This document shows, one piece after another, positions 4,768 through 63,554 of a DNA stretch of 64,000 nt. Both the position numbers and the translations under genes were made by a program. Source of the stretch: Escherichia phage pEC-M719-6WT.1; the sequence record OQ845957.1. One strand, written 5' to 3'. The number at the start of each line of letters is the position of its first letter. The first letter of the stretch is position 1. The notes under the pieces are model-generated. The model did no database searches. It was not told the origin of the DNA and saw only the letters and a program-made list of their open reading frames with translations.

Positions 4768-4963
4768 CTTTCTTTCTCCGTTTACGAGAAGTGTCGATTA
4801 ACGAATCAAGGTTAGTAGCTCTAACTTGTTCACGAGTACCATTGATGTAGTTATCAAGGGACTCTACAACAGTGTTGAAGTCTTTAGCCCAAACTCTGTA
4901 AATAACTACGCCGTCATCGTCAATAACTTCACCATAGTCTACTCTACAGATACTCTTCTTCAT
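4760..4963 (-). CDS. hypothetical protein
   Basis: 67 aa ORF with basic C-terminus. Confidence 0.25.
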   Translation of the reverse strand: MKKSICRVDYGEVIDDDGVVIYRVWAKDFNTVVESLDNYINGTREQVRATNLDSLIDTSRKRRKKDE

Positions 4964-5340
4964 TGTGGAAGACCCATGCAGTGACGGTTAATGATAAAGT
5001 GTTCAACACCGTCTAAAGCACCCTGAGAAACGTGCTCTTTCACAACTTCAATTTCAGCAATCTGCTCAGGGTTAAGAACGTCAATGTTTTCTGTAACCAT
5101 CATATCAGAAACATCAAGGTAGTACTGCCCCATTGTGTGGTAATTGAAATCAATTATCTTGTCAGTTAATTCATAAACAGTGTCTTGAGAAATTGGCTTG
5201 GTCAATTCTCCAGCTTTAGAAACAACCTTTTTAGCAACCTGACAAGCTTCTACTCTGACGTTGTTGTAATCAATCTTTGGCATATCTGCATAAGCATTGA
5301 GGCTTAGTGCTGCAAAGAGACATAATGTAATCTTTTTCAT
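4960..5340 (-). CDS. secreted/periplasmic protein
   Basis: N-terminal signal peptide MKKITLCLFAALSLNAYA. Confidence 0.4.
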   Translation of the reverse strand: MKKITLCLFAALSLNAYADMPKIDYNNVRVEACQVAKKVVSKAGELTKPISQDTVYELTDKIIDFNYHTMGQYYLDVSDMMVTENIDVLNPEQIAEIEVVKEHVSQGALDGVEHFIINRHCMGLPQ

Positions 5341-5515
5341 AACTTACTCCTATATAATATTTTGTATATCTACGAGTATAAAAATAAGCTATAACACCTG
5401 ACTTGTCAACAGATTTTATAGCTTATTTGGCAGATTTTTTATAAGGCTACTGCCATCCTTCCATACCTTACCACACAAGACCAAACCATGCCGTACTCCA
5501 CTTCACAGTACCAAG

Positions 5516-5731
5516 CATCACTTAAAAATCCTCTTAAAGACCCTTAAGTGATGTAAGTCTCATTTTAATGTAGCTGAGACTAACTACCCATACCATGCCT
5601 TACACCACCGAACCACACCAAACCACACCAAACCATACCAAACCATACCAAACCATACCATACCAAACCAGAGCCTACTATACCATACCGAACCTCACTT
5701 AAAAACCCTCTTAGAAGACTCTTAAGTGATG
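5516..5731. repeat. composite repeat: two ~36-bp palindromic elements (CATCACTTAA-N18-TTAAGTGATG) flanking tandem decamer repeats (CCAAACCATA x5-6)
   Basis: Direct reading of 5516-5553, 5607-5675 and 5695-5731; intergenic. Confidence 0.7.
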
Positions 5732-5795
5732 CTGGTGAGTACCCGTTGGTTTATGCTGCTCAGTATACTCACCAAATTTTCTATGTCAACAACTT

Positions 5796-6896
5796 TTATT
5801 CATAATCTCGAATAACTAACCCAACAGGGAACTGTAAAGAACCCTTACGAGTCATCTTCTGGAACTGAACCGTTAAAGGTTTCCCGATAAACTCTTCAGG
5901 ATGTTCAGCAAGATACTGTTTCTTCTCATGGGTAGTCTTCCATGAAACATCTACAAAGACATTAGGAAGAGTCTCTACAACGAACTTACCATGACCACGC
6001 TTATCAGTCTTCACACCAGTTACTTTAAATTCCTCTGTGTGCATCTTCTTATGTTTAATCAGGAAGTAAGAACGGTGACCACACTCATAGAAAGAATCTG
6101 CTGAAATGGAACGGTACATTGCCCCTTCAAACTTCAGCTTAACCCAATTATCATGGGCTTTGTCAAACTCTTCCCAAGAGTTAACACGTATAGTTTGAAC
6201 AGGTACAACCTTGCAAGCATCGCCAAGTTCAACGATTGGTGAATTATCAATGATTTCACGTCGCTCAGGCCAAGACTTAGTGCTATCACAGATATCATAC
6301 CAGTAGAACTTAAGAAGGTGACGGTCTGGATTGTCAGCATTCTTAATCATTGAAACAATATCTTCCAAATCCCAACCATGAGCATAAATCTCACCATCGA
6401 AGTCTGCAACTTGTGGATGGCATTTAAGCAGTAAAAGTAAGTCTGGAATTAACTCTTCAGGTACGTTGTACACAGTATTTTCACGGGAATAAGCTGTGAA
6501 GTTCACTGAGTCAACATCTCTTGAAATCCTGCAACGAACACCATCAAGTTTTGGTTGAGCGTCAGCAGGGAATTTCAAATACTTTGCATGACTAACCTTG
6601 GAAGCATCATGAGCAAGCTGTACACCTACCTTTTCAGTATTCTGTGCAGACTCTTTTGTGTAAGCATAACCTTTGCGGTCAACTTGCTTCTTGTACTTAG
6701 CAGCAACTTCAAAGAGAGCTTGCTGTTCAGCGTTACGCTCATTCTTTTTACCGATGTTTTTCGGTTCTGCTGTGTACTCTTCAAACATCATCTTGCCATT
6801 CTCTTTACCATAGGTGGTAACAACTTTGTCACCTACAGCAACACATGACCAGACGTTAAAGGAACCATCTTTATTTTGTTTGTACAGAATTGTCAT
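5796..6896 (-). CDS. ATP-dependent DNA ligase
   Basis: 366 aa; adenylation motif KLDGVRC (KxDG). Confidence 0.7.
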   Translation of the reverse strand: MTILYKQNKDGSFNVWSCVAVGDKVVTTYGKENGKMMFEEYTAEPKNIGKKNERNAEQQALFEVAAKYKKQVDRKGYAYTKESAQNTEKVGVQLAHDASKVSHAKYLKFPADAQPKLDGVRCRISRDVDSVNFTAYSRENTVYNVPEELIPDLLLLLKCHPQVADFDGEIYAHGWDLEDIVSMIKNADNPDRHLLKFYWYDICDSTKSWPERREIIDNSPIVELGDACKVVPVQTIRVNSWEEFDKAHDNWVKLKFEGAMYRSISADSFYECGHRSYFLIKHKKMHTEEFKVTGVKTDKRGHGKFVVETLPNVFVDVSWKTTHEKKQYLAEHPEEFIGKPLTVQFQKMTRKGSLQFPVGLVIRDYE

Positions 6897-6987
6897 TTAT
6901 TTCTTTCCTCACAAGCTATGCAGCCTTTTGAATAGAAGGAGTGCCAAGCACATCCACCAAAGTCTTCTTCAATGATACTATAAATCT

Positions 6988-7194
6988 TCATTGCCATTTA
7001 CCCTTTAAGTGTACATTAACAATTTGGTGGTCGTAGCCAGTTTTCAGTTTGTGTTCAATAAATTCAACTTTGTGCTTCCAACCATCAATTTCAACAATCT
7101 CACCTTCTCGTGGGATTACCGGATTTCTTTGAGCAACGGTTGTAGTAGAGTGGACAACATCATAACGGTAGATATAGTTTACTAAAACTTGCAT
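6988..7194 (-). CDS. hypothetical protein
   Basis: 68 aa ORF. Confidence 0.25.
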   Translation of the reverse strand: MQVLVNYIYRYDVVHSTTTVAQRNPVIPREGEIVEIDGWKHKVEFIEHKLKTGYDHQIVNVHLKGKWQ

Positions 7195-46498: not shown

Positions 46499-46540
46499 CA
46501 AGACGCCGCAACGGGGCAAATAGCCCCAGACCCTATACAA

Positions 46541-46561
46541 GCCCCTTCAATGGGGCTTTTT
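46541..46561 (+). terminator. intrinsic terminator closing the small-gene array
   Basis: GCCCC-TTCAAT-GGGGC hairpin plus TTTTT. Confidence 0.6.
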
Positions 46562-48089
46562 AACGTCTATCTAAACCCTTCCTAGAATCTTACCAGACAT
46601 TTAGAGCAATAACTCTATAGCTTACTCTATAATCCCTTATCAAATCAACTAAAATATAAGCCCATAACCCCAGAAAGGGGATGGCATTCTAATTGGTATT
46701 GTTACCAATCCCTTAAACGCTCTATAACGCTCTATAACGGCTTATCATCTCAACTTAAGCAATCATATTAACCCGCTCTTAAAAGCCCTTTATAGAGCTT
46801 CCTAGAGCCTTAAAAGAATCTTATAAGGGTGTAAGCTTTATCATCTCGTTAGTCTCTTGTGAATATCTAAACGGGGCTATGAGATAGGACTCTATAGTGG
46901 TTATAAAGTATCGTAAAAGCTAGCCCCCTTAACATTTCTTTAACAAAATCTTAACAATCCCTACATAGTTATGCTTATTAGCAACTTGTTAGCACCTTGT
47001 TAAATCCTTGTTAAGACCATGTTACAACCTTGTTAGACTCTTTGGAGTACCCTTAAAAGCCCCTGTAAAGGGCTATAAAGAGCTATACAGTCAGTTGGGC
47101 TATAGTTACTATGGAGAACCTTAGAAATAGCTGTATAGAGCTATACAGGGCTTTTAAGAGGTATGTTTAGAGAATCACTGAGAGGGATAGGGAGCGATAA
47201 GAGAAGAGATAGTGACCATGTTAATAGACTGTTAAAAAGGTTAAGAACTTATTAGCCACTTGTTAATTATCTTAACAAAATAACTTTTAAATTTAACATG
47301 TTAGCATCTTGTTAGACCCTTGTAAGAACTGTTAAGCTCTTGTTACATCCTTGTTAGTTCTGTTAAGAGACTGTTAAGAACTATCGAGACTTGTTAGAGA
47401 CTTGTTAGAGACTTGTTAGAGTTGTAAAGAAATTGTTAATGATATTTTAAAATTTTGCAAAGGGTATGTTACAAGGCTGTTAAGGGCTACCAAGCAGATA
47501 TACACCCTTTGTAGATATTTTTCAGATTCTCTACAAACCCTAAATAAACACTTGACAACTCTATTTTATAAAAATTTTATAGAACTGAATAACTATCTAT
47601 ACACTATCTTCTATAAAACAGGTAAATACAGGCTTATAAGATACCTTGTTAATACCGTGTTAGACCTTGTAGAATAAGCCTTAGAAGGGAATACCTGTTT
47701 AGTGCTATATAACAGTCTATATAGAGGGTTAGTAGAACCTAGTGAACATCCTATAGAGAGTCACATAGCTTACATAATGGGTTACTGTTAAGTAACACAG
47801 ATAACCTAGAGATTAAGATGGGTATAGGGGCTTCTAAGGGGCTATGAAGAGATGGTTAAGGTGATTGTATAGGTTTGGAAGAGGATTGCTTAGAGGGCTA
47901 TTTAGAAGGGTTATACAGAGAGCTATAGAGACTCACTGTTAAGGGACTAAGATACTATATAGTACTATATAACTATATAGAGAGTAAGGTTAAGTAGGTT
48001 GTTTAGAAGGGCTAGATATTTTATCACATATCATGGTGACCCAAGATGAACGAAGTGAATCCAAATTTTATAAAAATATTTTACTCAAT
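46562..48089. repeat. ORF-free repeat island with phased YTGTTAR motifs, GCTATACAG-type palindromes and a tandem CGCTCTATAA duplication
   Basis: No ORF of 60 aa or more on either strand; tandem 11-bp units at 46985-47040; 12-13 phased units at 47296-47432; bounded by convergent terminators. Confidence 0.75.
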
Positions 48090-48124
48090 AAAAAAGCCCC
48101 TATGAGACAGACTCTATTAGGGGC
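48090..48124 (-). terminator. intrinsic terminator for minus-strand block
   Basis: Hairpin GCCCC..GGGGC with T-run on minus strand (A-run on plus). Confidence 0.5.
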
Positions 48125-48133
48125 TGTATAGTT

Positions 48134-57894: not shown

Positions 57895-57971
57895 CTCTGT
57901 TTAGCTCAGTTTGGTAGAGCGTTCCGTTTGGGGCGGTAAGGCCAGAGGTTCAAGTCCTCTAACAGAGACCA
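57895..57971 (+). tRNA. tRNA-Pro (anticodon TGG, tentative)
   Basis: 7-bp acceptor CTCTGTT/AACAGAG, T-arm AGAGG-TTCAAGT-CCTCT, encoded CCA. Confidence 0.55.
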
Positions 57972-57978
57972 AATTAAT

Positions 57979-58053
57979 GTCGTAGAAGGCAAATGGTTAG
58001 CCACCTGACCTTCAATCAGTTGCTCGCGGGTTCGAATCCCGTCTACGACTCCA
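57979..58053 (+). tRNA. tRNA-Glu (anticodon TTC, tentative)
   Basis: Acceptor GTCGTAG/CTACGAC, T-loop TTCGAAT, CCA end. Confidence 0.5.
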
Positions 58054-58138
58054 AATTTGACAGAAGACCAAATACAGCAAACAACTTTTACTTTTCGCGC
58101 ATAGAAAACATAAAAAGCTTGGTCTGGTCATTAAGAAT

Positions 58139-58215
58139 TGCGGGTATAGAGAAAGGGCGTCTCACATGTCTCATTAGCATGGTATCGGCAGGTTCGACTC
58201 CTGCACCCGCCTCCA
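58139..58215 (+). tRNA. tRNA with CAT anticodon (Met/Ile2/initiator unresolved); 1:72 mismatch
   Basis: Anticodon arm CATGT-CTCATTA-GCATG, T-arm GCAGG-TTCGACT-CCTGC. Confidence 0.5.
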
Positions 58216-58296
58216 AATTTACAGAAGACCGTTTACAGCAATTCAAACAATTTTATCGGAAAATTAAAATGAATACGGTCTGGTAATGTTAAACAT

Positions 58297-58373
58297 GGTT
58301 AGGAAGCACATAAGGCATGTGCGGTCGGCTGTTAACCGAATGGCACAGGGTTCGAATCCCTGACTAACCGCCA
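58297..58373 (+). tRNA. tRNA-Asn (anticodon GTT)
   Basis: Anticodon loop CTGTTAA, T-arm CAGGG-TTCGAAT-CCCTG, CCA end. Confidence 0.6.
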
Positions 58374-58383
58374 AAATTTAAAT

Positions 58384-58471
58384 GCGTCGTTATCCCGTAG
58401 ATGGAAGCGGTGGTGACTGTAAATCACTTGTCATTACGACTCGGTAGGTTCGACTCCTTCACGGCGCACCA
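58384..58471 (+). tRNA. tRNA-Tyr (anticodon GTA), class II
   Basis: 88 nt with long variable arm; anticodon loop CTGTAAA. Confidence 0.6.
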
Positions 58472-58477
58472 AACAAA

Positions 58478-58555
58478 GGTTATGTAGTTTAATTTGGTTA
58501 AAATACCTCCCTGTCACGGAGGAAGATGTGGGTTCAAGTCCCATCATAACCGCCA
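58478..58555 (+). tRNA. tRNA-Asp (anticodon GTC)
   Basis: Acceptor GGTTATG/CATAACC; anticodon arm CCTCC-CTGTCAC-GGAGG. Confidence 0.65.
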
Positions 58556-58975
58556 ATTTTGAGAGGGCTTTTTAGCCCCTCCCTTAAAGAGTTCTTACGA
58601 GTATTCTTTAAAGGAGCAGAAGACCAAATTCAGCAAGTTACTTAAAATTTCAAGCCAATTTAATTTTGAAAAATTTAAAACTTGGTCTGGTTCCAACAAA
58701 TTTACAGAAGACCGTTTACAGCAATTTAAATCTATTTCTCTCAAAAAGAAAAGGTGAAGGTTCGATTCCTTCACACGTTACGGCGTGTTGGTGTAATGGA
58801 AGCACTTTAGATAATAACGGTCTGGTAATCCTCTTTGCAGTGACTTATGGAGCTAATATATCGTCCCATGAGTGCCGATGAATTTCCTTAGCATGATTCT
58901 AGATTAGCTTAATAGGAAATGACTCTACAAGCCCTTTAGCAAGGTTTGCGTAGGTTACTGCAAAGATGATTTAAT

Positions 58976-59051
58976 GGGAGTGTAGCAGAATGGTGATGCG
59001 GCAGACTTTTAATCTGACAGGCGACGGGTTCGAATCCCTCCACTCCTACCA
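58976..59051 (+). tRNA. tRNA-Lys (anticodon TTT)
   Basis: Anticodon loop CTTTTAA; T-loop TTCGAAT; weak T-stem. Confidence 0.5.
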
Positions 59052-59055
59052 ATAT

Positions 59056-59132
59056 GGTTCAGTCGCAGATAAGGTAATGCAAGGGTTTCATAAGCCCTAT
59101 GAATGTGGGTTCGATTCCCACCTGAACCTCCA
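59056..59132 (+). tRNA. tRNA with CAT anticodon (Met or Ile2)
   Basis: Perfect acceptor GGTTCAG/CTGAACC; anticodon arm AGGGT-TTCATAA-GCCCT; T-arm GTGGG-TTCGATT-CCCAC. Confidence 0.65.
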
Positions 59133-59134
59133 AT

Positions 59135-59209
59135 TGTGGGTTAGCATAAATGGTAATGCAAACGGCTGATAACCGTTAGAAGAGGGTTCGATACCCTCAC
59201 CTACAACCA
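59135..59209 (+). tRNA. tRNA-Ile (anticodon GAT)
   Basis: Anticodon arm AACGG-CTGATAA-CCGTT; T-arm GAGGG-TTCGATA-CCCTC. Confidence 0.65.
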
Positions 59210-59224
59210 ATTTCAATAAAGTTG

Positions 59225-59253
59225 TTGACATTGAGATGTGACTACTTTATAGT
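59225..59253 (+). promoter_or_regulatory. sigma70 consensus-like promoter (TTGACA-N17-TATAGT) inside tRNA cluster
   Basis: Near-consensus hexamers with exact 17-bp spacer. Confidence 0.6.
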
Positions 59254-59486
59254 TACCTTAGTTTTCGTTAGCGTAGCGTCTATTTTGCAAACTTAAAAAT
59301 AAATGCAAACGATAATGTTTTTCTGGCAGTAGCTTAATAGGCTAAACACCAGTGAGGTCTTCCAATCCCTCATCAAAGAATTTGGCGTACTAGCCCACGG
59401 TATGATTAATAAAGTGGGCAACATTCTAAAGGGTATCCCTTATGGGGCTTGGCTTAAATGCAATGAGTACCCTTTAAAATGTTAAT
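59254..59486 (+). ncRNA. candidate structured ncRNA downstream of internal promoter
   Basis: ~230 nt with no ORF and no canonical tRNA fold; nested stems GCCCAC..GTGGGC and AAGGGTA..TACCCTT. Confidence 0.3.
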
Positions 59487-59563
59487 GCACCCTTAGTTCA
59501 ACTGGACAGAGCAAATGACTTCTAATCATTGAGTTACAGGTTCGAATCCTGTAGGGTGTTCCA
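59487..59563 (+). tRNA. tRNA-Arg (anticodon TCT)
   Basis: Anticodon arm AATGA-CTTCTAA-TCATT; T-arm ACAGG-TTCGAAT-CCTGT. Confidence 0.65.
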
Positions 59564-59623
59564 ATTTAATGGTCAAGACAACACTAGTAAGTCATCTTCG
59601 ATACATGTTAAGAGATGAACGAA

Positions 59624-59691
59624 AGTCGGAAAGTTGCTGAAGGTTAGCTACCTTCGATAGTAAGTAGGTTCGACTCCTACCTTGGCTGCCA
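59624..59691 (+). tRNA. aberrant tRNA-like element (~68 nt; D-arm not resolvable)
   Basis: Good T-arm GTAGG-TTCGACT-CCTAC and CCA end, stem GAAGG-TTAGCTA-CCTTC, but no standard D-arm or full acceptor pairing. Confidence 0.3.
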
Positions 59692-59833
59692 AATAGTTAG
59701 CAGATTGCTTAGACGACCTTAACGGGTCTCCGTGTAAGGAGGTGGTCTGTATCTCATGTTTCCAGAGCATGTAAAATATTCTGAGAAGGGGCTTTACAGT
59801 GTTGTGATAATACGGTAAGCTTCGAATTATAGT

Positions 59834-59916
59834 ATGGGACGATGTTAAGACACTAAGGCATGTGCGTAAGCCTCCAAAACTTACTCAAAGGGGTTCGAAT
59901 CCTCCGTCCCATGCCA
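59834..59916 (+). tRNA. atypical tRNA-like element (possible anticodon CCA/Trp; ~8-nt insertion between acceptor and D-stem)
   Basis: Perfect acceptor ATGGGAC/GTCCCAT, T-loop TTCGAAT, CCA end; body 83 nt without a class II variable arm. Confidence 0.35.
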
Positions 59917-59929
59917 AAGTCTTATTAGG

Positions 59930-60017
59930 GGTAGGTAGCGGCTAATGGAAGCCAAACTGTCTTGAAAACAGTTGCCACTGTAGAGATACGGTGAGGGTTC
60001 GACTCCTTTACTTACCG
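59930..60017 (+). tRNA. tRNA-Ser (anticodon TGA), class II
   Basis: Anticodon arm ACTGT-CTTGAAA-ACAGT; long variable arm; CCA not encoded. Confidence 0.6.
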
Positions 60018-60019
60018 CC

Positions 60020-60272
60020 TAATAAGATTTGAAATCCACGCTACTGTTATTACGTGCGTTCGGTTTCCTCTAACGTGTATTGGCGTACACGGCACTGATG
60101 GAGCACCTAGTAGGTGTCACGGAGAAGAGATAGTATCAAGCTCTCCAAAGGTTCTAGTCACCGGATTAAACAAGACTATGCAAAGACTGATTAGGTCTTT
60201 TTAGAGAACTTCTGAGGCAAACTATACCATTGTTGCTTTGGGGTCTTGGAAGTTCTCTACAAAGATTTTAAT
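60020..60272 (+). ncRNA. candidate structured ncRNA / spacer within tRNA cluster
   Basis: ~250 nt without ORF or tRNA fold between two tRNAs; multiple local stems. Confidence 0.25.
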
Positions 60273-60350
60273 GGGAGATTGACGGTAATTGGTAAACCTA
60301 CCATCCTTAGAAGTTGGTGTTTGAGGGTTCGAATCCCTTGTCTCCTACCA
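60273..60350 (+). tRNA. tRNA, class I length, anticodon TAG (Leu anticodon; isotype uncertain)
   Basis: Acceptor GGGAGAT/GTCTCCT, anticodon arm CCATC-CTTAGAA-GTTGG, discriminator A. Confidence 0.45.
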
Positions 60351-60357
60351 AATTAAT

Positions 60358-60433
60358 GCAGGTGTAGCAAAATGGTTATGCGGCTGACTCTTAATCAGTA
60401 AGACGATGGGTTCAATTCCCTCCACCTGTACCA
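60358..60433 (+). tRNA. tRNA-Lys (anticodon CTT, tentative)
   Basis: Anticodon arm GCTGA-CTCTTAA-TCAGT; T-loop TTCAATT. Confidence 0.5.
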
Positions 60434-60439
60434 AACATT

Positions 60440-60515
60440 GGGGATGTAGTTTACATGGTTAAAACGTAAGTTTTGCAAACTTAAGTACAGGGTTCAATTC
60501 CCTGCTTCTCCACCA
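60440..60515 (+). tRNA. tRNA-Ala (anticodon TGC)
   Basis: Anticodon arm TAAGT-TTTGCAA-ACTTA; T-arm CAGGG-TTCAATT-CCCTG. Confidence 0.6.
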
Positions 60516-60521
60516 ATTAGT

Positions 60522-60596
60522 GCATCCATAGTTTAAACGGGAAAATTACAGTCTTCCAAACTGAGGTTGAGGGTTCGATTCCCTCTGGATGCTCCA
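60522..60596 (+). tRNA. tRNA-Gly (anticodon TCC)
   Basis: Perfect acceptor GCATCCA/TGGATGC; anticodon loop CTTCCAA. Confidence 0.6.
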
Positions 60597-60610
60597 AATT
60601 AAGGTGTGAT

Positions 60611-61024
60611 ATGAAAATATGTAGTACTTGCAGAATACCAAAAGATGAAAGCTTATTCCATAAGAATAAGAACAAGAAAGATGGTCTTCAAAGTCAATGC
60701 AAAGACTGTGCAAGACTTCGTGATGCAAAGAGTTATCAAGCAAATGATAGAAGGAAAGAGTCTATTAAAAGCACTCGTAACTTCAAGAGAGAGTATAACA
60801 AGGCTCTAGCTAGAAGGTACAAAGCTTTATGTAAATGTCATATATGTGGTGAGAAAGAGCCAGTTGCACTGGATTTACACCATACAGACCCTTCCAAGAA
60901 AGATTTGAATCCTGCATCGCTTTATTCATACTCCACAAAAAGATTAAAAGATGAAATCAGAAAGTGTATTGTCTTGTGCGCTAACTGTCACAGAAAAGTA
61001 CATGCTGGTATTATTAAAGTTTAA
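60611..61024 (+). CDS. HNH endonuclease (zinc-finger type), inserted between tRNA genes
   Basis: HNH core LDLHHTDPSKK...CANCHRKVHAG plus CxxC pairs. Confidence 0.6.
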   Translation: MKICSTCRIPKDESLFHKNKNKKDGLQSQCKDCARLRDAKSYQANDRRKESIKSTRNFKREYNKALARRYKALCKCHICGEKEPVALDLHHTDPSKKDLNPASLYSYSTKRLKDEIRKCIVLCANCHRKVHAGIIKV

Positions 61025-61025
61025 T

Positions 61026-61102
61026 GCTGCTTTCGTATAATTGGCTATTACACATCCCTTGTAAGGATGGAGATGCGGGTTCAAGTCCTGTGAGCAGCAC
61101 CA
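61026..61102 (+). tRNA. tRNA-Thr (anticodon TGT)
   Basis: Anticodon arm CATCC-CTTGTAA-GGATG; acceptor GCTGCTT/GAGCAGC. Confidence 0.6.
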
Positions 61103-61198
61103 ATTTTGAGGTCAAGTGAAAGACCGCTTGAGTCAACTGAAGACCGTAACAAATTCCACGGAGTTGAGTTAGCGGCACAACTTCAGACCTCTTTCAAA

Positions 61199-61273
61199 GC
61201 TCGCTTAGTTTATATGGTAAAGCCCCATCCTTACAAGTTGGTGAAGAAGGTTCAAGTCCTTCAGCGAGTACCA
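61199..61273 (+). tRNA. tRNA-Val (anticodon TAC)
   Basis: Anticodon arm CCATC-CTTACAA-GTTGG (same stem as 60273 element); T-arm GAAGG-TTCAAGT-CCTTC. Confidence 0.55.
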
Positions 61274-61274
61274 A

Positions 61275-61352
61275 GTTCCAGTATCCCAATTGGCAGAGGA
61301 TGCAAGCTCAAACCTTGTATTAGTGACGGTTCGAATCCGTCTTGGAACACCA
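61275..61352 (+). tRNA. tRNA, class I length, anticodon CAA (Leu anticodon; isotype uncertain)
   Basis: Anticodon arm GCAAG-CTCAAAC-CTTGT; T-arm GACGG-TTCGAAT-CCGTC; discriminator A. Confidence 0.45.
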
Positions 61353-61369
61353 AATTTTAGGAGATTCCT

Positions 61370-61582
61370 ATGAAGCCTTATGGTAGACACGGTAAAGTTG
61401 AAATTGCAAGTTGTGGTTGCTGTGCTTCTCACGATGGTGAAGAAGATTACTACAAGTGGCGTACAGACCATCGTAGACGCTTTCTCAGAAGAGATAAGAA
61501 GAAAGCTAGACAGGAATCTCGAAAAGATATTGCAGAATTAGTTCAAATGGATAGAGCAGCAACCTACGAAGTTGTCTGTTAG
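61370..61582 (+). CDS. small Cys-rich basic protein (doubtful; 3' end overlaps tRNA-Arg)
   Basis: 70 aa with GGAGA RBS but ~50-nt overlap with a well-formed tRNA. Confidence 0.2.
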   Translation: MKPYGRHGKVEIASCGCCASHDGEEDYYKWRTDHRRRFLRRDKKKARQESRKDIAELVQMDRAATYEVVC

Positions 61583-61608
61583 GGGTTCGAATCCCTTATT
61601 CTGCACCA
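61532..61608 (+). tRNA. tRNA-Arg (anticodon ACG)
   Basis: Perfect acceptor GCAGAAT/ATTCTGC; anticodon arm GCAAC-CTACGAA-GTTGT. Confidence 0.65.
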
Positions 61609-61628
61609 ATTTTAAAGAGGCTATTTAA

Positions 61629-62186
61629 ATGAGATATTTGAAGTATGCTTCATGGATTTTCCTAGCTTTGCTAGAGCCATTTGCAGCAATCTTAGCAGTT
61701 ATCTTAGCACCTTTCGTAGTTCCATTCTACAATGAGAAGAAAGGTCACTTACCTTTTGGATTCAGATGGATGGAGACTTATGATAATCCAATTGACGGTG
61801 ACAAAGGCCACGTTGAACGATGGGCTAAGATTCGAAAGATTGGCAAGCTCGGTGTTTATATGCAGAGAGTTGGATGGCTCTGGAGAAACAAAGCTTATAA
61901 CTTCTCTTACCATGTATTAGGGAGAGATGTAAAAGATGTTACTAAGTGGAAAGGTAATATCAACGTAAGTTCTAACCCTGAAGATAATCAGACAGGTTAT
62001 CTCCTGATGTGGAACAGTAATGCTTGGGGATTATTCGCTTTTATACCGTCAATTAAAATCTTTGGTAAACAGTTTTACTGGAGAATTTATGTTGGATGGA
62101 AGCTTAAAAGTGTTGTCCCAGAAGAAAGAGCATTCTCAAGGGAAAGAATTATGTTGGCATTCTTTATTCATCCACTAAGAAAGTAA
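61629..62186 (+). CDS. membrane protein
   Basis: 185 aa; N-terminal hydrophobic segment IFLALLEPFAAILAVILAPFVVPF; AAAGAGG RBS. Confidence 0.35.
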   Translation: MRYLKYASWIFLALLEPFAAILAVILAPFVVPFYNEKKGHLPFGFRWMETYDNPIDGDKGHVERWAKIRKIGKLGVYMQRVGWLWRNKAYNFSYHVLGRDVKDVTKWKGNINVSSNPEDNQTGYLLMWNSNAWGLFAFIPSIKIFGKQFYWRIYVGWKLKSVVPEERAFSRERIMLAFFIHPLRK

Positions 62187-62194
62187 AGATTTAA

Positions 62195-62270
62195 AGGGGA
62201 TTAGTTTACAAGGTTAAAACCTCGGTCTTTGAAATCGAAGAAGTTGGTTCAATTCCAACATCCCCCGCCA
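62195..62270 (+). tRNA. tRNA-Gln (anticodon TTG)
   Basis: Anticodon arm TCGGT-CTTTGAA-ATCGA; perfect T-arm GTTGG-TTCAATT-CCAAC; 1:72 mismatch. Confidence 0.6.
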
Positions 62271-62272
62271 AT

Positions 62273-62351
62273 GCTCCATTACTCCAATTGGCAGAGAGGC
62301 CAGACTTAAAATCTGTGTTATGTATCGGTTCGAATCCGATATGGAGTACCA
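62273..62351 (+). tRNA. tRNA, class I length, anticodon TAA (Leu anticodon; isotype uncertain)
   Basis: Anticodon loop CTTAAAA; T-arm ATCGG-TTCGAAT-CCGAT; discriminator A. Confidence 0.45.
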
Positions 62352-62357
62352 AATATT

Positions 62358-62433
62358 AGCAGTGTAGCATAACTGGCAATGCTCCAGCCTCTGAAGCTGA
62401 AAGATTAAGGTTCAAATCCTTACACTGCTGCCA
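62358..62433 (+). tRNA. tRNA-Gln (anticodon CTG, tentative)
   Basis: Perfect acceptor AGCAGTG/CACTGCT; anticodon loop CTCTGAA. Confidence 0.5.
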
Positions 62434-62464
62434 CTTCTAAGGGTTCTTACGAGAGTCCTTAAAT

Positions 62465-62541
62465 GTGGCCTTATCATAAATGTATAATGACCCATGCTGT
62501 GAACATGGTCTATACGGGTTCGATTCCCGTAGGTCACCCCA
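62465..62541 (+). tRNA. tRNA-His (anticodon GTG)
   Basis: Anticodon arm CCATG-CTGTGAA-CATGG perfect; T-arm ACGGG-TTCGATT-CCCGT. Confidence 0.65.
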
Positions 62542-62548
62542 ATTTTAA

Positions 62549-62623
62549 TAGCTCAATTAGCTTATATGGTTAAAGCGCGTGTCTGAAAAACATGAGAACA
62601 GGGTTCAAATCCCGATGGGCTAC
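62549..62623 (+). tRNA. tRNA-Phe (anticodon GAA)
   Basis: Acceptor TAGCTCA/TGGGCTA; anticodon loop CTGAAAA; weak T-stem. Confidence 0.5.
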
Positions 62624-62650
62624 CAATTATATAGGTGCATAATGAAAGAG

Positions 62651-63376
62651 ATGACAGGACAAGGTAAAGAGATTTTCAGTCTCCTTAAATCCGGTAACGG
62701 GTTCTCTAACCCTCTTATTACTGGTGCAGCAGTTCTTGGTGGTACAGTTGCTGCTTCTCAGTTATTAATCACTTCAATTAGCTCTGTATCAGACCCAGCT
62801 ACCCAGCAAATCCTTATTGCTGCTGGCTTGACAACTGCCTTACTAAGCAGCTTTACAACAAGCCTTGGTAGCACCACTTCAACGACAACTACTTTAACTG
62901 ACTATGGACAGAAGTCTGTAGATGAGTTTTCACAGCGTATGCAAGTAGCTAAAGGTTACTCTAACGTTATGGGAGCAGCAGGTGAACAAGTTGGCTGTAC
63001 ACCGTTTAGTGGAATCATGGGAGTTGCTACTGAATACGGTAACAAGGCTATGGATTTGATTAACACCTCCATAGATGCCGTAAACAGCGTTCTAAGCGAC
63101 TTACAGGATGCAATTGATAAAGGACTAGCAACTATCTCTGACCTCGCTACACAAGCTGTTACAGCGATTAATGAAGGTATGGCAAAGATTACTGCCTACG
63201 CTAATGAAGTGGCTCAGATGATTGCAGATGAAGCAGCAATGATTGCAGAGTATCTAAAAACCAATATTAATGGTTTCCTTGCAAATGTTTTACCAGATTG
63301 GTTTAACGATGATTGTAAGACGGGTGTAATTGATACAATTGCAACTCCAGAGATGAAAGAAGCTCTAAACAAATAA
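62651..63376 (+). CDS. hypothetical membrane-associated protein
   Basis: Track ORF 62579-63376 trimmed to internal ATG past tRNA-Phe; hydrophobic segments LITGAAVLGGTVAASQLLITSI and ILIAAGLTTALLSSF. Confidence 0.35.
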   Translation: MTGQGKEIFSLLKSGNGFSNPLITGAAVLGGTVAASQLLITSISSVSDPATQQILIAAGLTTALLSSFTTSLGSTTSTTTTLTDYGQKSVDEFSQRMQVAKGYSNVMGAAGEQVGCTPFSGIMGVATEYGNKAMDLINTSIDAVNSVLSDLQDAIDKGLATISDLATQAVTAINEGMAKITAYANEVAQMIADEAAMIAEYLKTNINGFLANVLPDWFNDDCKTGVIDTIATPEMKEALNK

Positions 63377-63379
63377 TTT

Positions 63380-63472
63380 GGAAGATTAACCCTAAAAGGT
63401 AAGGGAGCAGTTTGCTAAACTGCCAGTAGCTGAGAAATCGGTGTACCAGTTCAAGTCTGGTATCTTCCTCCA
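63380..63472 (+). tRNA. tRNA-Ser (anticodon GCT), class II
   Basis: 93 nt; perfect acceptor GGAAGAT/ATCTTCC; anticodon arm GCAGT-TTGCTAA-ACTGC; long variable arm. Confidence 0.65.
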
Positions 63473-63478
63473 AATTTT

Positions 63479-63554
63479 GCATTGGTGTCAGAAATGGATA
63501 TGTACCTGTCTGCAAAATAGGTTTATGAGGGTTCGAGTCCCTTCCAATGCTCCA
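63479..63554 (+). tRNA. tRNA-Cys (anticodon GCA)
   Basis: Perfect acceptor GCATTGG/CCAATGC; anticodon loop CTGCAAA; T-loop TTCGAGT. Confidence 0.6.

Follow-up and report, generated by a model that had tools for sequence, protein, structure and literature searches.

What kind of element is the palindrome-flanked tandem repeat that lies between the ATP-dependent DNA ligase gene and the gene of a 126-aa protein with a signal-peptide-like N-terminus in this phage? The window, i.e., the whole stretch of 64,000 nucleotides that was analysed, had received an initial annotation in which this repeat was considered a possible regulatory, recombination or nicking-related site. The gene context given there is correct, and so are the letters that caught the eye. 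The palindrome CATCACTTAA-N18-TTAAGTGATG is exact at 5516-5553, with arms (5516-5525 and 5544-5553) that are 100% complementary and 18 nt apart, and its variant copy is located at 5693-5731, with the core arms TCACTTAA and TTAAGTGA. The tandem decamers (CCAAACCATA) are likewise present, as a period-10 array at 5606-5670 (6.5 copies, 92% matches in Tandem Repeats Finder) underlain by a period-5 signal at 5612-5689. An 18-mer equivalent to a decamer pair, CCAAACCATACCAAACCA, occurs 11 times with up to three mismatches, always inside this element, against an expectation of 0.05; the arm pattern of the palindrome is found once in the window for 0.06 expected; and the only 100-nt stretch of the 64 kb with more than 78% C+A is this one. 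Chance is excluded as the origin of the repeat and the palindromes, of which there are no other copies elsewhere in the window.

A point that had been missed is that both flanking genes are encoded on the minus strand; the informative strand is therefore the reverse complement, and the element, a real and correctly located feature, had been read on the wrong strand. Also overlooked were the true repeat unit, which is a degenerate pentamer, NNGGT, and not a decamer, and the duplication of a whole module of ~177 bp made of hairpin and tract, which includes a second, non-slipped pentamer tract at 5463-5512. On the minus strand the 455-bp intergenic region is ordered as a promoter (P1), a leader, a hairpin (H), tract A, a tail, a second H, tract B, another tail and a terminator hairpin (Table 1). 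It holds no ORF of at least 40 aa and no tRNA gene, and Rfam 15 gives no match at gathering score, the best one reaching 18.9 bits for the 30 required (E >3) in a search to E 10 that returned eukaryotic families only. As argued below, the region very probably encodes two guide RNAs (vrRNAs) of the SUSP1 clade of type II VIPR (Viral Interference Programmable Repeat) systems, in an array that has lost its protein genes. The kind of element is already known; the orphan example is new.

Table 1. Features of the array region and of its neighbouring genes, in the order of transcription of the minus strand (positions in the window).
Feature	Position	Strand	Detail or basis
ATP-dependent DNA ligase	5796-6896	minus	Pfam PF01068
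Predicted promoter P1	5762-5789	minus	-35 TTGACA 5789-5784, 16-nt spacer, -10 TATACT 5767-5762
Spacer hairpin H, copy 1 (variant palindrome)	5693-5731	minus	RNA fold: 16-bp helix, 3-nt loop
vrRNA-A guide tract, 21 GGY+NN pentamers	5590-5694	minus	Repeat analysis
vrRNA-A 3' tail, H-type pseudoknot	5555-5589	minus	GG-GTAG-TT-AGTCTC-AG-CTAC-ATTAAAAT-GAGACT
Spacer hairpin H, copy 2 (exact palindrome)	5516-5553	minus	RNA fold: 17-bp helix, 4-nt loop
vrRNA-B guide tract, 10 GGY+NN pentamers	5463-5512	minus	Ortholog of the fourth SUSP1 vrRNA
vrRNA-B 3' tail, terminal-type pseudoknot	5428-5462	minus	GG-AAGG-A-TGGCAG-TAG-CCTT-ATAAAAAAT-CTGCCA
AT-rich 19-bp hairpin and T run	5382-5428	minus	Inverted repeat, 89% complementary
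Predicted promoter P2 of the 126-aa gene	5409-5404 (-35)	minus	-35 TTGACA, in the loop of the terminator hairpin; consensus 10/12; putative function
126-aa protein	4960-5340	minus	N-terminus resembles a signal peptide (by eye)

P1, which scores 11/12 against the sigma-70 consensus, directly follows the ligase stop codon and is succeeded by a 30-nt leader, both being identical to those upstream of vrRNA1 of phage SUSP1. In guide A the NN dinucleotides read TC AT AT AG CT TT AT AT TT AT TT AT TT GT TT GT TC GG AA AT AT, and the CCAAACCATA decamers correspond to a slippage expansion, (GGTTTGGTAT)n, within the tract. Guide B reads AC GA GG AC AT TT CT GT AA AT, and differs in 3/10 dinucleotides from the fourth SUSP1 vrRNA (CC GA GG AC AT CT CT GT GA AT). 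The tail of vrRNA-B is identical to the one that ends the array in 25 relatives, and the sequence of the terminator hairpin with P2 is kept almost base for base across relatives. This AT-rich hairpin is, to judge from its sequence, the likely terminator of the array, and it is the only one followed by T's. The arrangement had been described as unlike a simple terminator, and rightly so, as the H hairpins lack the T run that, in an intrinsic terminator, comes after a G+C-rich stem with a short loop, and a scan of 4800-7000 for terminator-like sites returned none. The idea that H might carry a sigma-70 promoter for each guide was discarded for its poor hexamer matches (by eye).

The window belongs to a Felix O1-like phage (subfamily Ounavirinae), with ~80-85% identity to its nearest GenBank relatives over the array region, and 29 related loci were collected via the ligase protein. 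Together with the window they contain 73 distinct tracts, in which positions 3 to 5 of the pentamer are G (83%), G (92%) and T (87%) while positions 1 and 2 are almost random; 13 units is the commonest length, and every tract lies after the ligase gene, on the gene-sense strand. The shuffled window yields 0-3 short pentamer runs. Guide A is the longest of the 73, with 24 units in a count that includes flanking units, the others having 8-19. Could the element then be a plain microsatellite beside chance palindromes, devoid of function? The decamer run of guide A is indeed a genuine product of slippage, but the conservation of the GGY period while NN varies freely points to selection on the pattern rather than to a young microsatellite; furthermore, the pattern matches lie far above chance and an experimentally characterised locus shows synteny with the region. 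The comparative data already refute this reading, whose probability we consider negligible. In the same sense, the copy number of the decamer among isolates, which had been put forward as a check, is a misleading measure: decamer slippage is peculiar to this phage, whereas it is the GGY periodicity that is conserved across relatives.

In most of the relatives the tracts flank a cassette of two genes, whose products have 200 and 146 aa. When viral contigs were scanned for seven GGT triplets at five-base spacing, many unrelated contigs were retrieved, with 52 loci carrying degenerate tracts, often arrayed and up to 18 in number; clustering of their ORFs revealed a single ~190-aa protein family, which 34 of these loci encode next to the arrays or within them, mostly just upstream and on the same strand. 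The Felix O1-like member of this family is the 200-aa cassette protein, which matches PDB entry 36pp, 'SUSP1 Vipr protein', with E = 2.6e-130. Pfam, NCBIfam and PADLOC hold no family for Vipr or for its companion Vap1, and PHROGs lists them as of unknown function only (phrog_4652, phrog_5926). Neither a full-text search of the literature on Felix O1 intergenic repeats nor a search on pentanucleotide repeats in phages brought up anything relevant.

Several features of the viral loci deserve mention on their own. Very long arrays exist, with 18 tracts in L127 and 10 in L049. No Vipr homolog is present in the stretch examined in 18 of the 52 loci (L030-L149), which may be truncated or may represent further orphan arrays. 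In L061, L078, L116, L121 and similar loci, short runs of GGTWA-type pentamers stand directly beside iteron-like arrays, for example of cgttac or ccggtggaatttcc, and near such runs 7 loci encode members of another protein family; these runs may be unrelated to VIPR.

VIPR was reported in 2026, with Escherichia phage SUSP1, to which the phage of the window is related, in two preprints that are not peer-reviewed (bioRxiv 10.64898/2026.04.26.720920; 10.64898/2026.04.26.720927). It is presented as an RNA-guided form of DNA recognition whose code is gapped, and as possibly ancestral to the RAMP proteins of CRISPR. From these preprints we take the mechanism, the rules for the repeats and for the 1-nt skips, the tail and the satellite targets. 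The system is composed of Vipr, a small RAMP-like protein, of an accessory gene, vap, and of vrRNAs, each made of 9-16 YNNGG repeats and an invariant 3' tail, which in the SUSP1 clade includes a pseudoknot. Each repeat is bound by one Vipr protomer, which sequesters GGY, and the protomers polymerise on the GGY motifs; the NN bases pair with double-stranded DNA, every third base being skipped, and transcription is silenced. In other VIPR types the guides are separated by hammerhead ribozymes. Among the guides of the SUSP1 clade with identifiable targets, 18/20 are aimed at a satellite phage of E. coli, and some satellites bear vrRNAs of their own (10.64898/2026.04.26.720920; 10.64898/2026.04.26.720927).

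The SUSP1 locus in our set (L012) has the published layout, in which vipr and vap are preceded by one tract and followed by three. As VIPR accounts for the conservation of GGY, the freedom of NN and the length of the tracts, a number of other candidates were dropped: a site for a TRAP-like ring protein, a Rho utilisation site on the antisense RNA, two-tier G-quadruplexes, an R-loop origin, a primase hot spot and GT-rich RecA/Chi-like recombination hot spots, as well as Shine-Dalgarno-like standby sites, a sponge for tRNA CCA ends, PAM decoys, the variable region of a diversity-generating retroelement and a type III antitoxin (ToxI-like) array.

The structural elements that accompany the tracts point to the RNA level. 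Folded as RNA, H is a continuous helix of 16-17 bp closed by G.U with a loop of 3-4 nt, and not a 10-bp stem with an 18-nt loop; copy 1 folds at -14.6 kcal/mol (z = -4.1) and copy 2 at -18.9 kcal/mol (z = -6.8). It is conserved in 26/29 relatives, where H or a diverged form, H', precedes every tract. Of the 17 pairs in the consensus of the H/H' family, 6 show compensatory changes, and several G.U pairs stay the same throughout the 20 variants; together, the invariant G.U pairs and the compensatory changes imply a constraint acting on RNA. The tails, in turn, fall into four sequence types that share one H-type pseudoknot, all nine of whose pairs are 100% paired across 12 tail variants, with eight changed on both sides, while slid controls reach 30-44% pairing. 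The window carries one intact tail of internal type and one intact tail of terminal type.

A site acting as DNA, be it a nick, a recombination or cis-regulatory site, an origin or a protein-binding array, has in its favour that palindromes and phased repeats resemble such sites and that the repeated modules evidently recombine. Against it stand the G.U pairs invariant in 20 variants and the compensatory changes, which are constraints on RNA, the covariation of the tail pseudoknots, and the strand specificity of the tracts, linked to a family of RNA-binding proteins; moreover, three close relatives (L002, L003 and L019) lack the element, which is therefore not essential. We hold a DNA-level site to be very improbable. 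The suggestion of a nicking-related site finds no support, as the phage is Felix O1-like and not T5-like, and the features of the sequence are fully explained at the RNA level. "Regulatory" is apt in a loose sense, in that the system to which the encoded guide RNAs belong shuts down transcription in a competing mobile element, but the element is not a cis-regulatory site for the neighbouring genes. What did hold from the start is that the element is functional, composite and based on repeats.

In the array-less relatives just mentioned (L002 3602-3686, L003 3602-3758, L019 3602-3842) there is one promoter after the ligase gene, whose -10 and start are bracketed by an inverted repeat of 9-10 bp that varies in sequence and keeps its complementarity, which suggests a structural constraint around the promoters of this phage group.

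As for the role of H, the hairpins may be processing or boundary elements between guides, since their position matches that of the hammerhead ribozymes in other VIPR types; the 17-bp, G.U-containing inter-guide hairpin would perhaps be a site for host RNase III that releases single vrRNAs. In SUSP1, a third H-like hairpin, AAAGAGTCTTCTGTTGAGGGTTCTTT, was seen by eye after the tail of vrRNA1 and before vipr (L012 3976-4010). If it is real, guides would be bracketed by H-like hairpins on both sides.

Measured against the published vrRNAs, guide B, with 10 units, falls within the range of 9-16, which guide A, with 21, exceeds on account of decamer slippage; both tails fit the H-type pseudoknot. 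With SUSP1, whose type II VIPR comprises Vipr, Vap1 and four vrRNAs (PDB 36pp), the window shares the position downstream of the ligase, the promoter with its leader and the modules themselves, and its guide B, ortholog of the fourth SUSP1 vrRNA, is aimed at the same site in the satellite integrase. It differs in having two guides instead of four, with 3/10 NN changed in guide B and a lengthened guide A, and in lacking vipr and vap. Nor is the region a CRISPR array, in which identical direct repeats of ~24-48 nt take turns with unique spacers of comparable length, as only two copies of a 38-39-nt hairpin exist, with a tract and a tail between them, and there is no alternation of repeats and spacers.

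Within the 64-kb window vipr was not found, either by tblastn (best E = 4.8) or with an HMM of the family run against translations of all six frames (best E = 0.62), and neither was vap by tblastn with Vap1 (best E = 4.9); a complete system, i.e., a vipr gene for a RAMP-like protein of ~200 aa beside the vrRNAs, with its accessory vap, is thus not present in it. Such a system could still exist if vipr resided elsewhere in the genome, given that the window is only part of it (~64 kb, for related genomes of 84-91 kb) and misses the structural module. Nevertheless, vipr and vap are found between the upstream and downstream vrRNAs of this very locus in 18/18 complete relatives, related phages have a single Vipr-matching place, and the intergenic region of the window consists of the two ends of a complete locus joined together; this possibility appears quite unlikely to us. 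Indeed, the left part of that region can be aligned with the upstream ends of complete loci, and the stretch from 202 to 455 within it is 95% identical to the downstream end of L021. Since the two halves match opposite ends, recombination between repeated modules probably removed the genes; vipr and vap would have been deleted by homologous recombination between the directly repeated tail/hairpin modules flanking them. The earlier idea of a recombination site retains this much: recombination is incidental to the element, whose repeated modules appear to have mediated the deletion.

An analogy can be drawn with the Promoter-early stem-loop (PeSL) cassettes that Arbiol and colleagues are said to have described in 2010 in T4-type phages. 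There, modules of promoter and stem-loop reportedly flank accessory genes, and recombination between modules reportedly removes or shuffles genes in a variable region. The likeness lies in the repeated modules, in the loss of genes by recombination, and in the terminator hairpin of the window with a promoter -35 in its loop; the difference is that PeSLs are only regulatory and recombination modules, whereas the repeated modules of the window are the guide-RNA genes themselves.

The window is not an isolated case. The 29 relatives comprise 18 complete loci, 8 arrays without vipr and vap, and 3 loci with neither, and the orphan arrays show at least three architectures. GenBank contains 118 related records with a Vipr of at least 90% identity, from ~260 records that match the array region. 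The fidelity of GGY is equal in orphan (0.66) and complete arrays (0.68), which, taken with the several architectures, indicates either that losses are frequent and recent or that orphan arrays are kept for a reason. Among the phages L001-L029, Vipr and Vap1 are each conserved at 97-100% identity, and the neighbouring ligases are only 87-97% identical to that of the window; judging by these sequences, the vipr-vap cassette seems better conserved than its surroundings, or exchanged more recently.

What would the guides recognise? The satellite, searched with the SUSP1 baseplate gene named in the preprint, is present in 474 of 5,426 complete E. coli genomes, and ten copies of it were used for target scans. 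A scan with 1-nt skips reproduces the published targeting in the satellite (26/26 for SUSP1 vrRNA2, 20/20 for vrRNA1), and many other guides of relatives match it perfectly. Guide B matches 17/20 in the gene of the satellite serine recombinase (integrase), at TCCAGAAGGTACAATTTTGCTTGTTGAGAG (L151 17044-17073, L154 16046-16075), the same site as for its SUSP1 ortholog. The central 14/14 positions are perfect, every skipped base falls, by our count, on codon position 3 of the annotated CDS, and 2/200 shuffles equal the score. With 85% of the NN positions paired and skips at the wobble base, guide B behaves as a guide with a natural target, for which we took at least 80% of NN as the threshold. 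Units 1-10 of guide A match 18/20 at the start of a satellite gene (L151 11772-11801), a score that none of 200 shuffles reached, and the remaining 11 units have no partner; as its skipped base lies off the wobble position, this site is only a candidate target.

Outside the satellite, the exact 1-nt-skip patterns of guides A and B returned nothing in IMG/VR, blastn of the array gave no match in complete E. coli genomes, and guide B has no self-target with up to three mismatches in the 64-kb window. The pattern of guide A has 8 hits in GTDB genomes, all in unrelated organisms, mostly AT-rich bacteria (Flavobacterium, Chitinophagaceae and others), and they are read as chance. The satellite itself carries guides: in that of E. 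coli GN4751 (L154 6051-6123, minus strand) there is an own promoter-vrRNA-terminator unit with a SUSP1-type pseudoknot tail, whose second stem (GTCG/CGAC) is unlike that of SUSP1 in sequence and keeps the pairing. No Vipr homolog was detected in the first five satellite loci examined.

Taken in sequence, the array would be transcribed from the minus strand by P1, each unit consisting of a 17-bp hairpin, a GGY+NN tract and a pseudoknot tail. In a complete system, one Vipr protomer would cover each pentamer, the exposed NN would pair with the target double-stranded DNA, and the satellite that parasitises the phage would be silenced. Here, guide B still encodes a match to the satellite integrase gene, and guide A has been lengthened to 21 units by recent slippage of decamers. 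We read the array as probably still transcribed and unable to silence alone. Barring a supply of Vipr in trans, it most likely represents a recent remnant. Guide A is a counter-point to the membership of the array, with a length beyond the published range, a code of low complexity and a best match off the wobble rule.

Vipr-less arrays might instead be maintained by selection and act in trans, as guides for the Vipr of a co-infecting relative or as decoys that soak up the Vipr of a competitor. They are found in 8/29 relatives besides the window, in at least three architectures, with promoter, tails and GGY as intact as in complete loci, and several orphan guides match the satellite perfectly (e.g., 18/18 in L028). 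A simple decaying remnant predicts neither this fidelity nor this variety. Furthermore, the vipr-less vrRNA of the satellite with its SUSP1-type tail, together with the report of satellite-encoded vrRNAs in the preprint, provides a natural precedent for guides without vipr. Repeated recent deletions would, however, look identical, and the slippage expansion of guide A looks like relaxed constraint, and we judge selection for action in trans unlikely; as decoys, these arrays would be a first RNA anti-VIPR, comparable to RNA anti-CRISPRs.

Two groups of known elements offer parallels to the array. The vipr-less units of satellites likewise have promoter, vrRNA, terminator and SUSP1-type pseudoknot tail with no Vipr gene, and differ in that a satellite depends on a Vipr-encoding helper, the source of the protein being obvious, whereas the array lies in a phage of helper type that lacks Vipr itself. 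Orphan CRISPR arrays, solitary repeat units and RNA anti-CRISPRs are also guides without effectors, possibly remnants, trans-acting elements or decoys; they are made of repeat-spacer units and not of GGY/NN pentamer tracts, and the system of the window has no adaptation machinery.

Two other regions of the window are worth recording. At 46500-48130 there are ~1.6 kb without an ORF of at least 60 aa, with more than 25 copies of nnCTTGTTAnn spaced by 11 bp and 10-bp CTATAAAG/CTGTAAAG repeats, and the cumulative GC skew turns there; from its sequence, this iteron-like array is a candidate for an origin of replication or a hub of regulation. At 57895-63554, on the plus strand, 24 tRNA genes are clustered.

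Arrays of this kind are unannotated in GenBank records and, when read on the wrong strand, look like CA-rich microsatellites, which should be borne in mind by annotators. More broadly, the window offers a natural case of guides that survive without their protein in a phage of helper type. Such orphans are common in our sample (8/29), come in several architectures and keep GGY as well as complete loci do; the likely route by which the VIPR locus was lost here is recombination between its own repeated modules. The gain and loss of VIPR loci, the use of guides in trans or as decoys, and the processing of arrays have thereby become testable questions.
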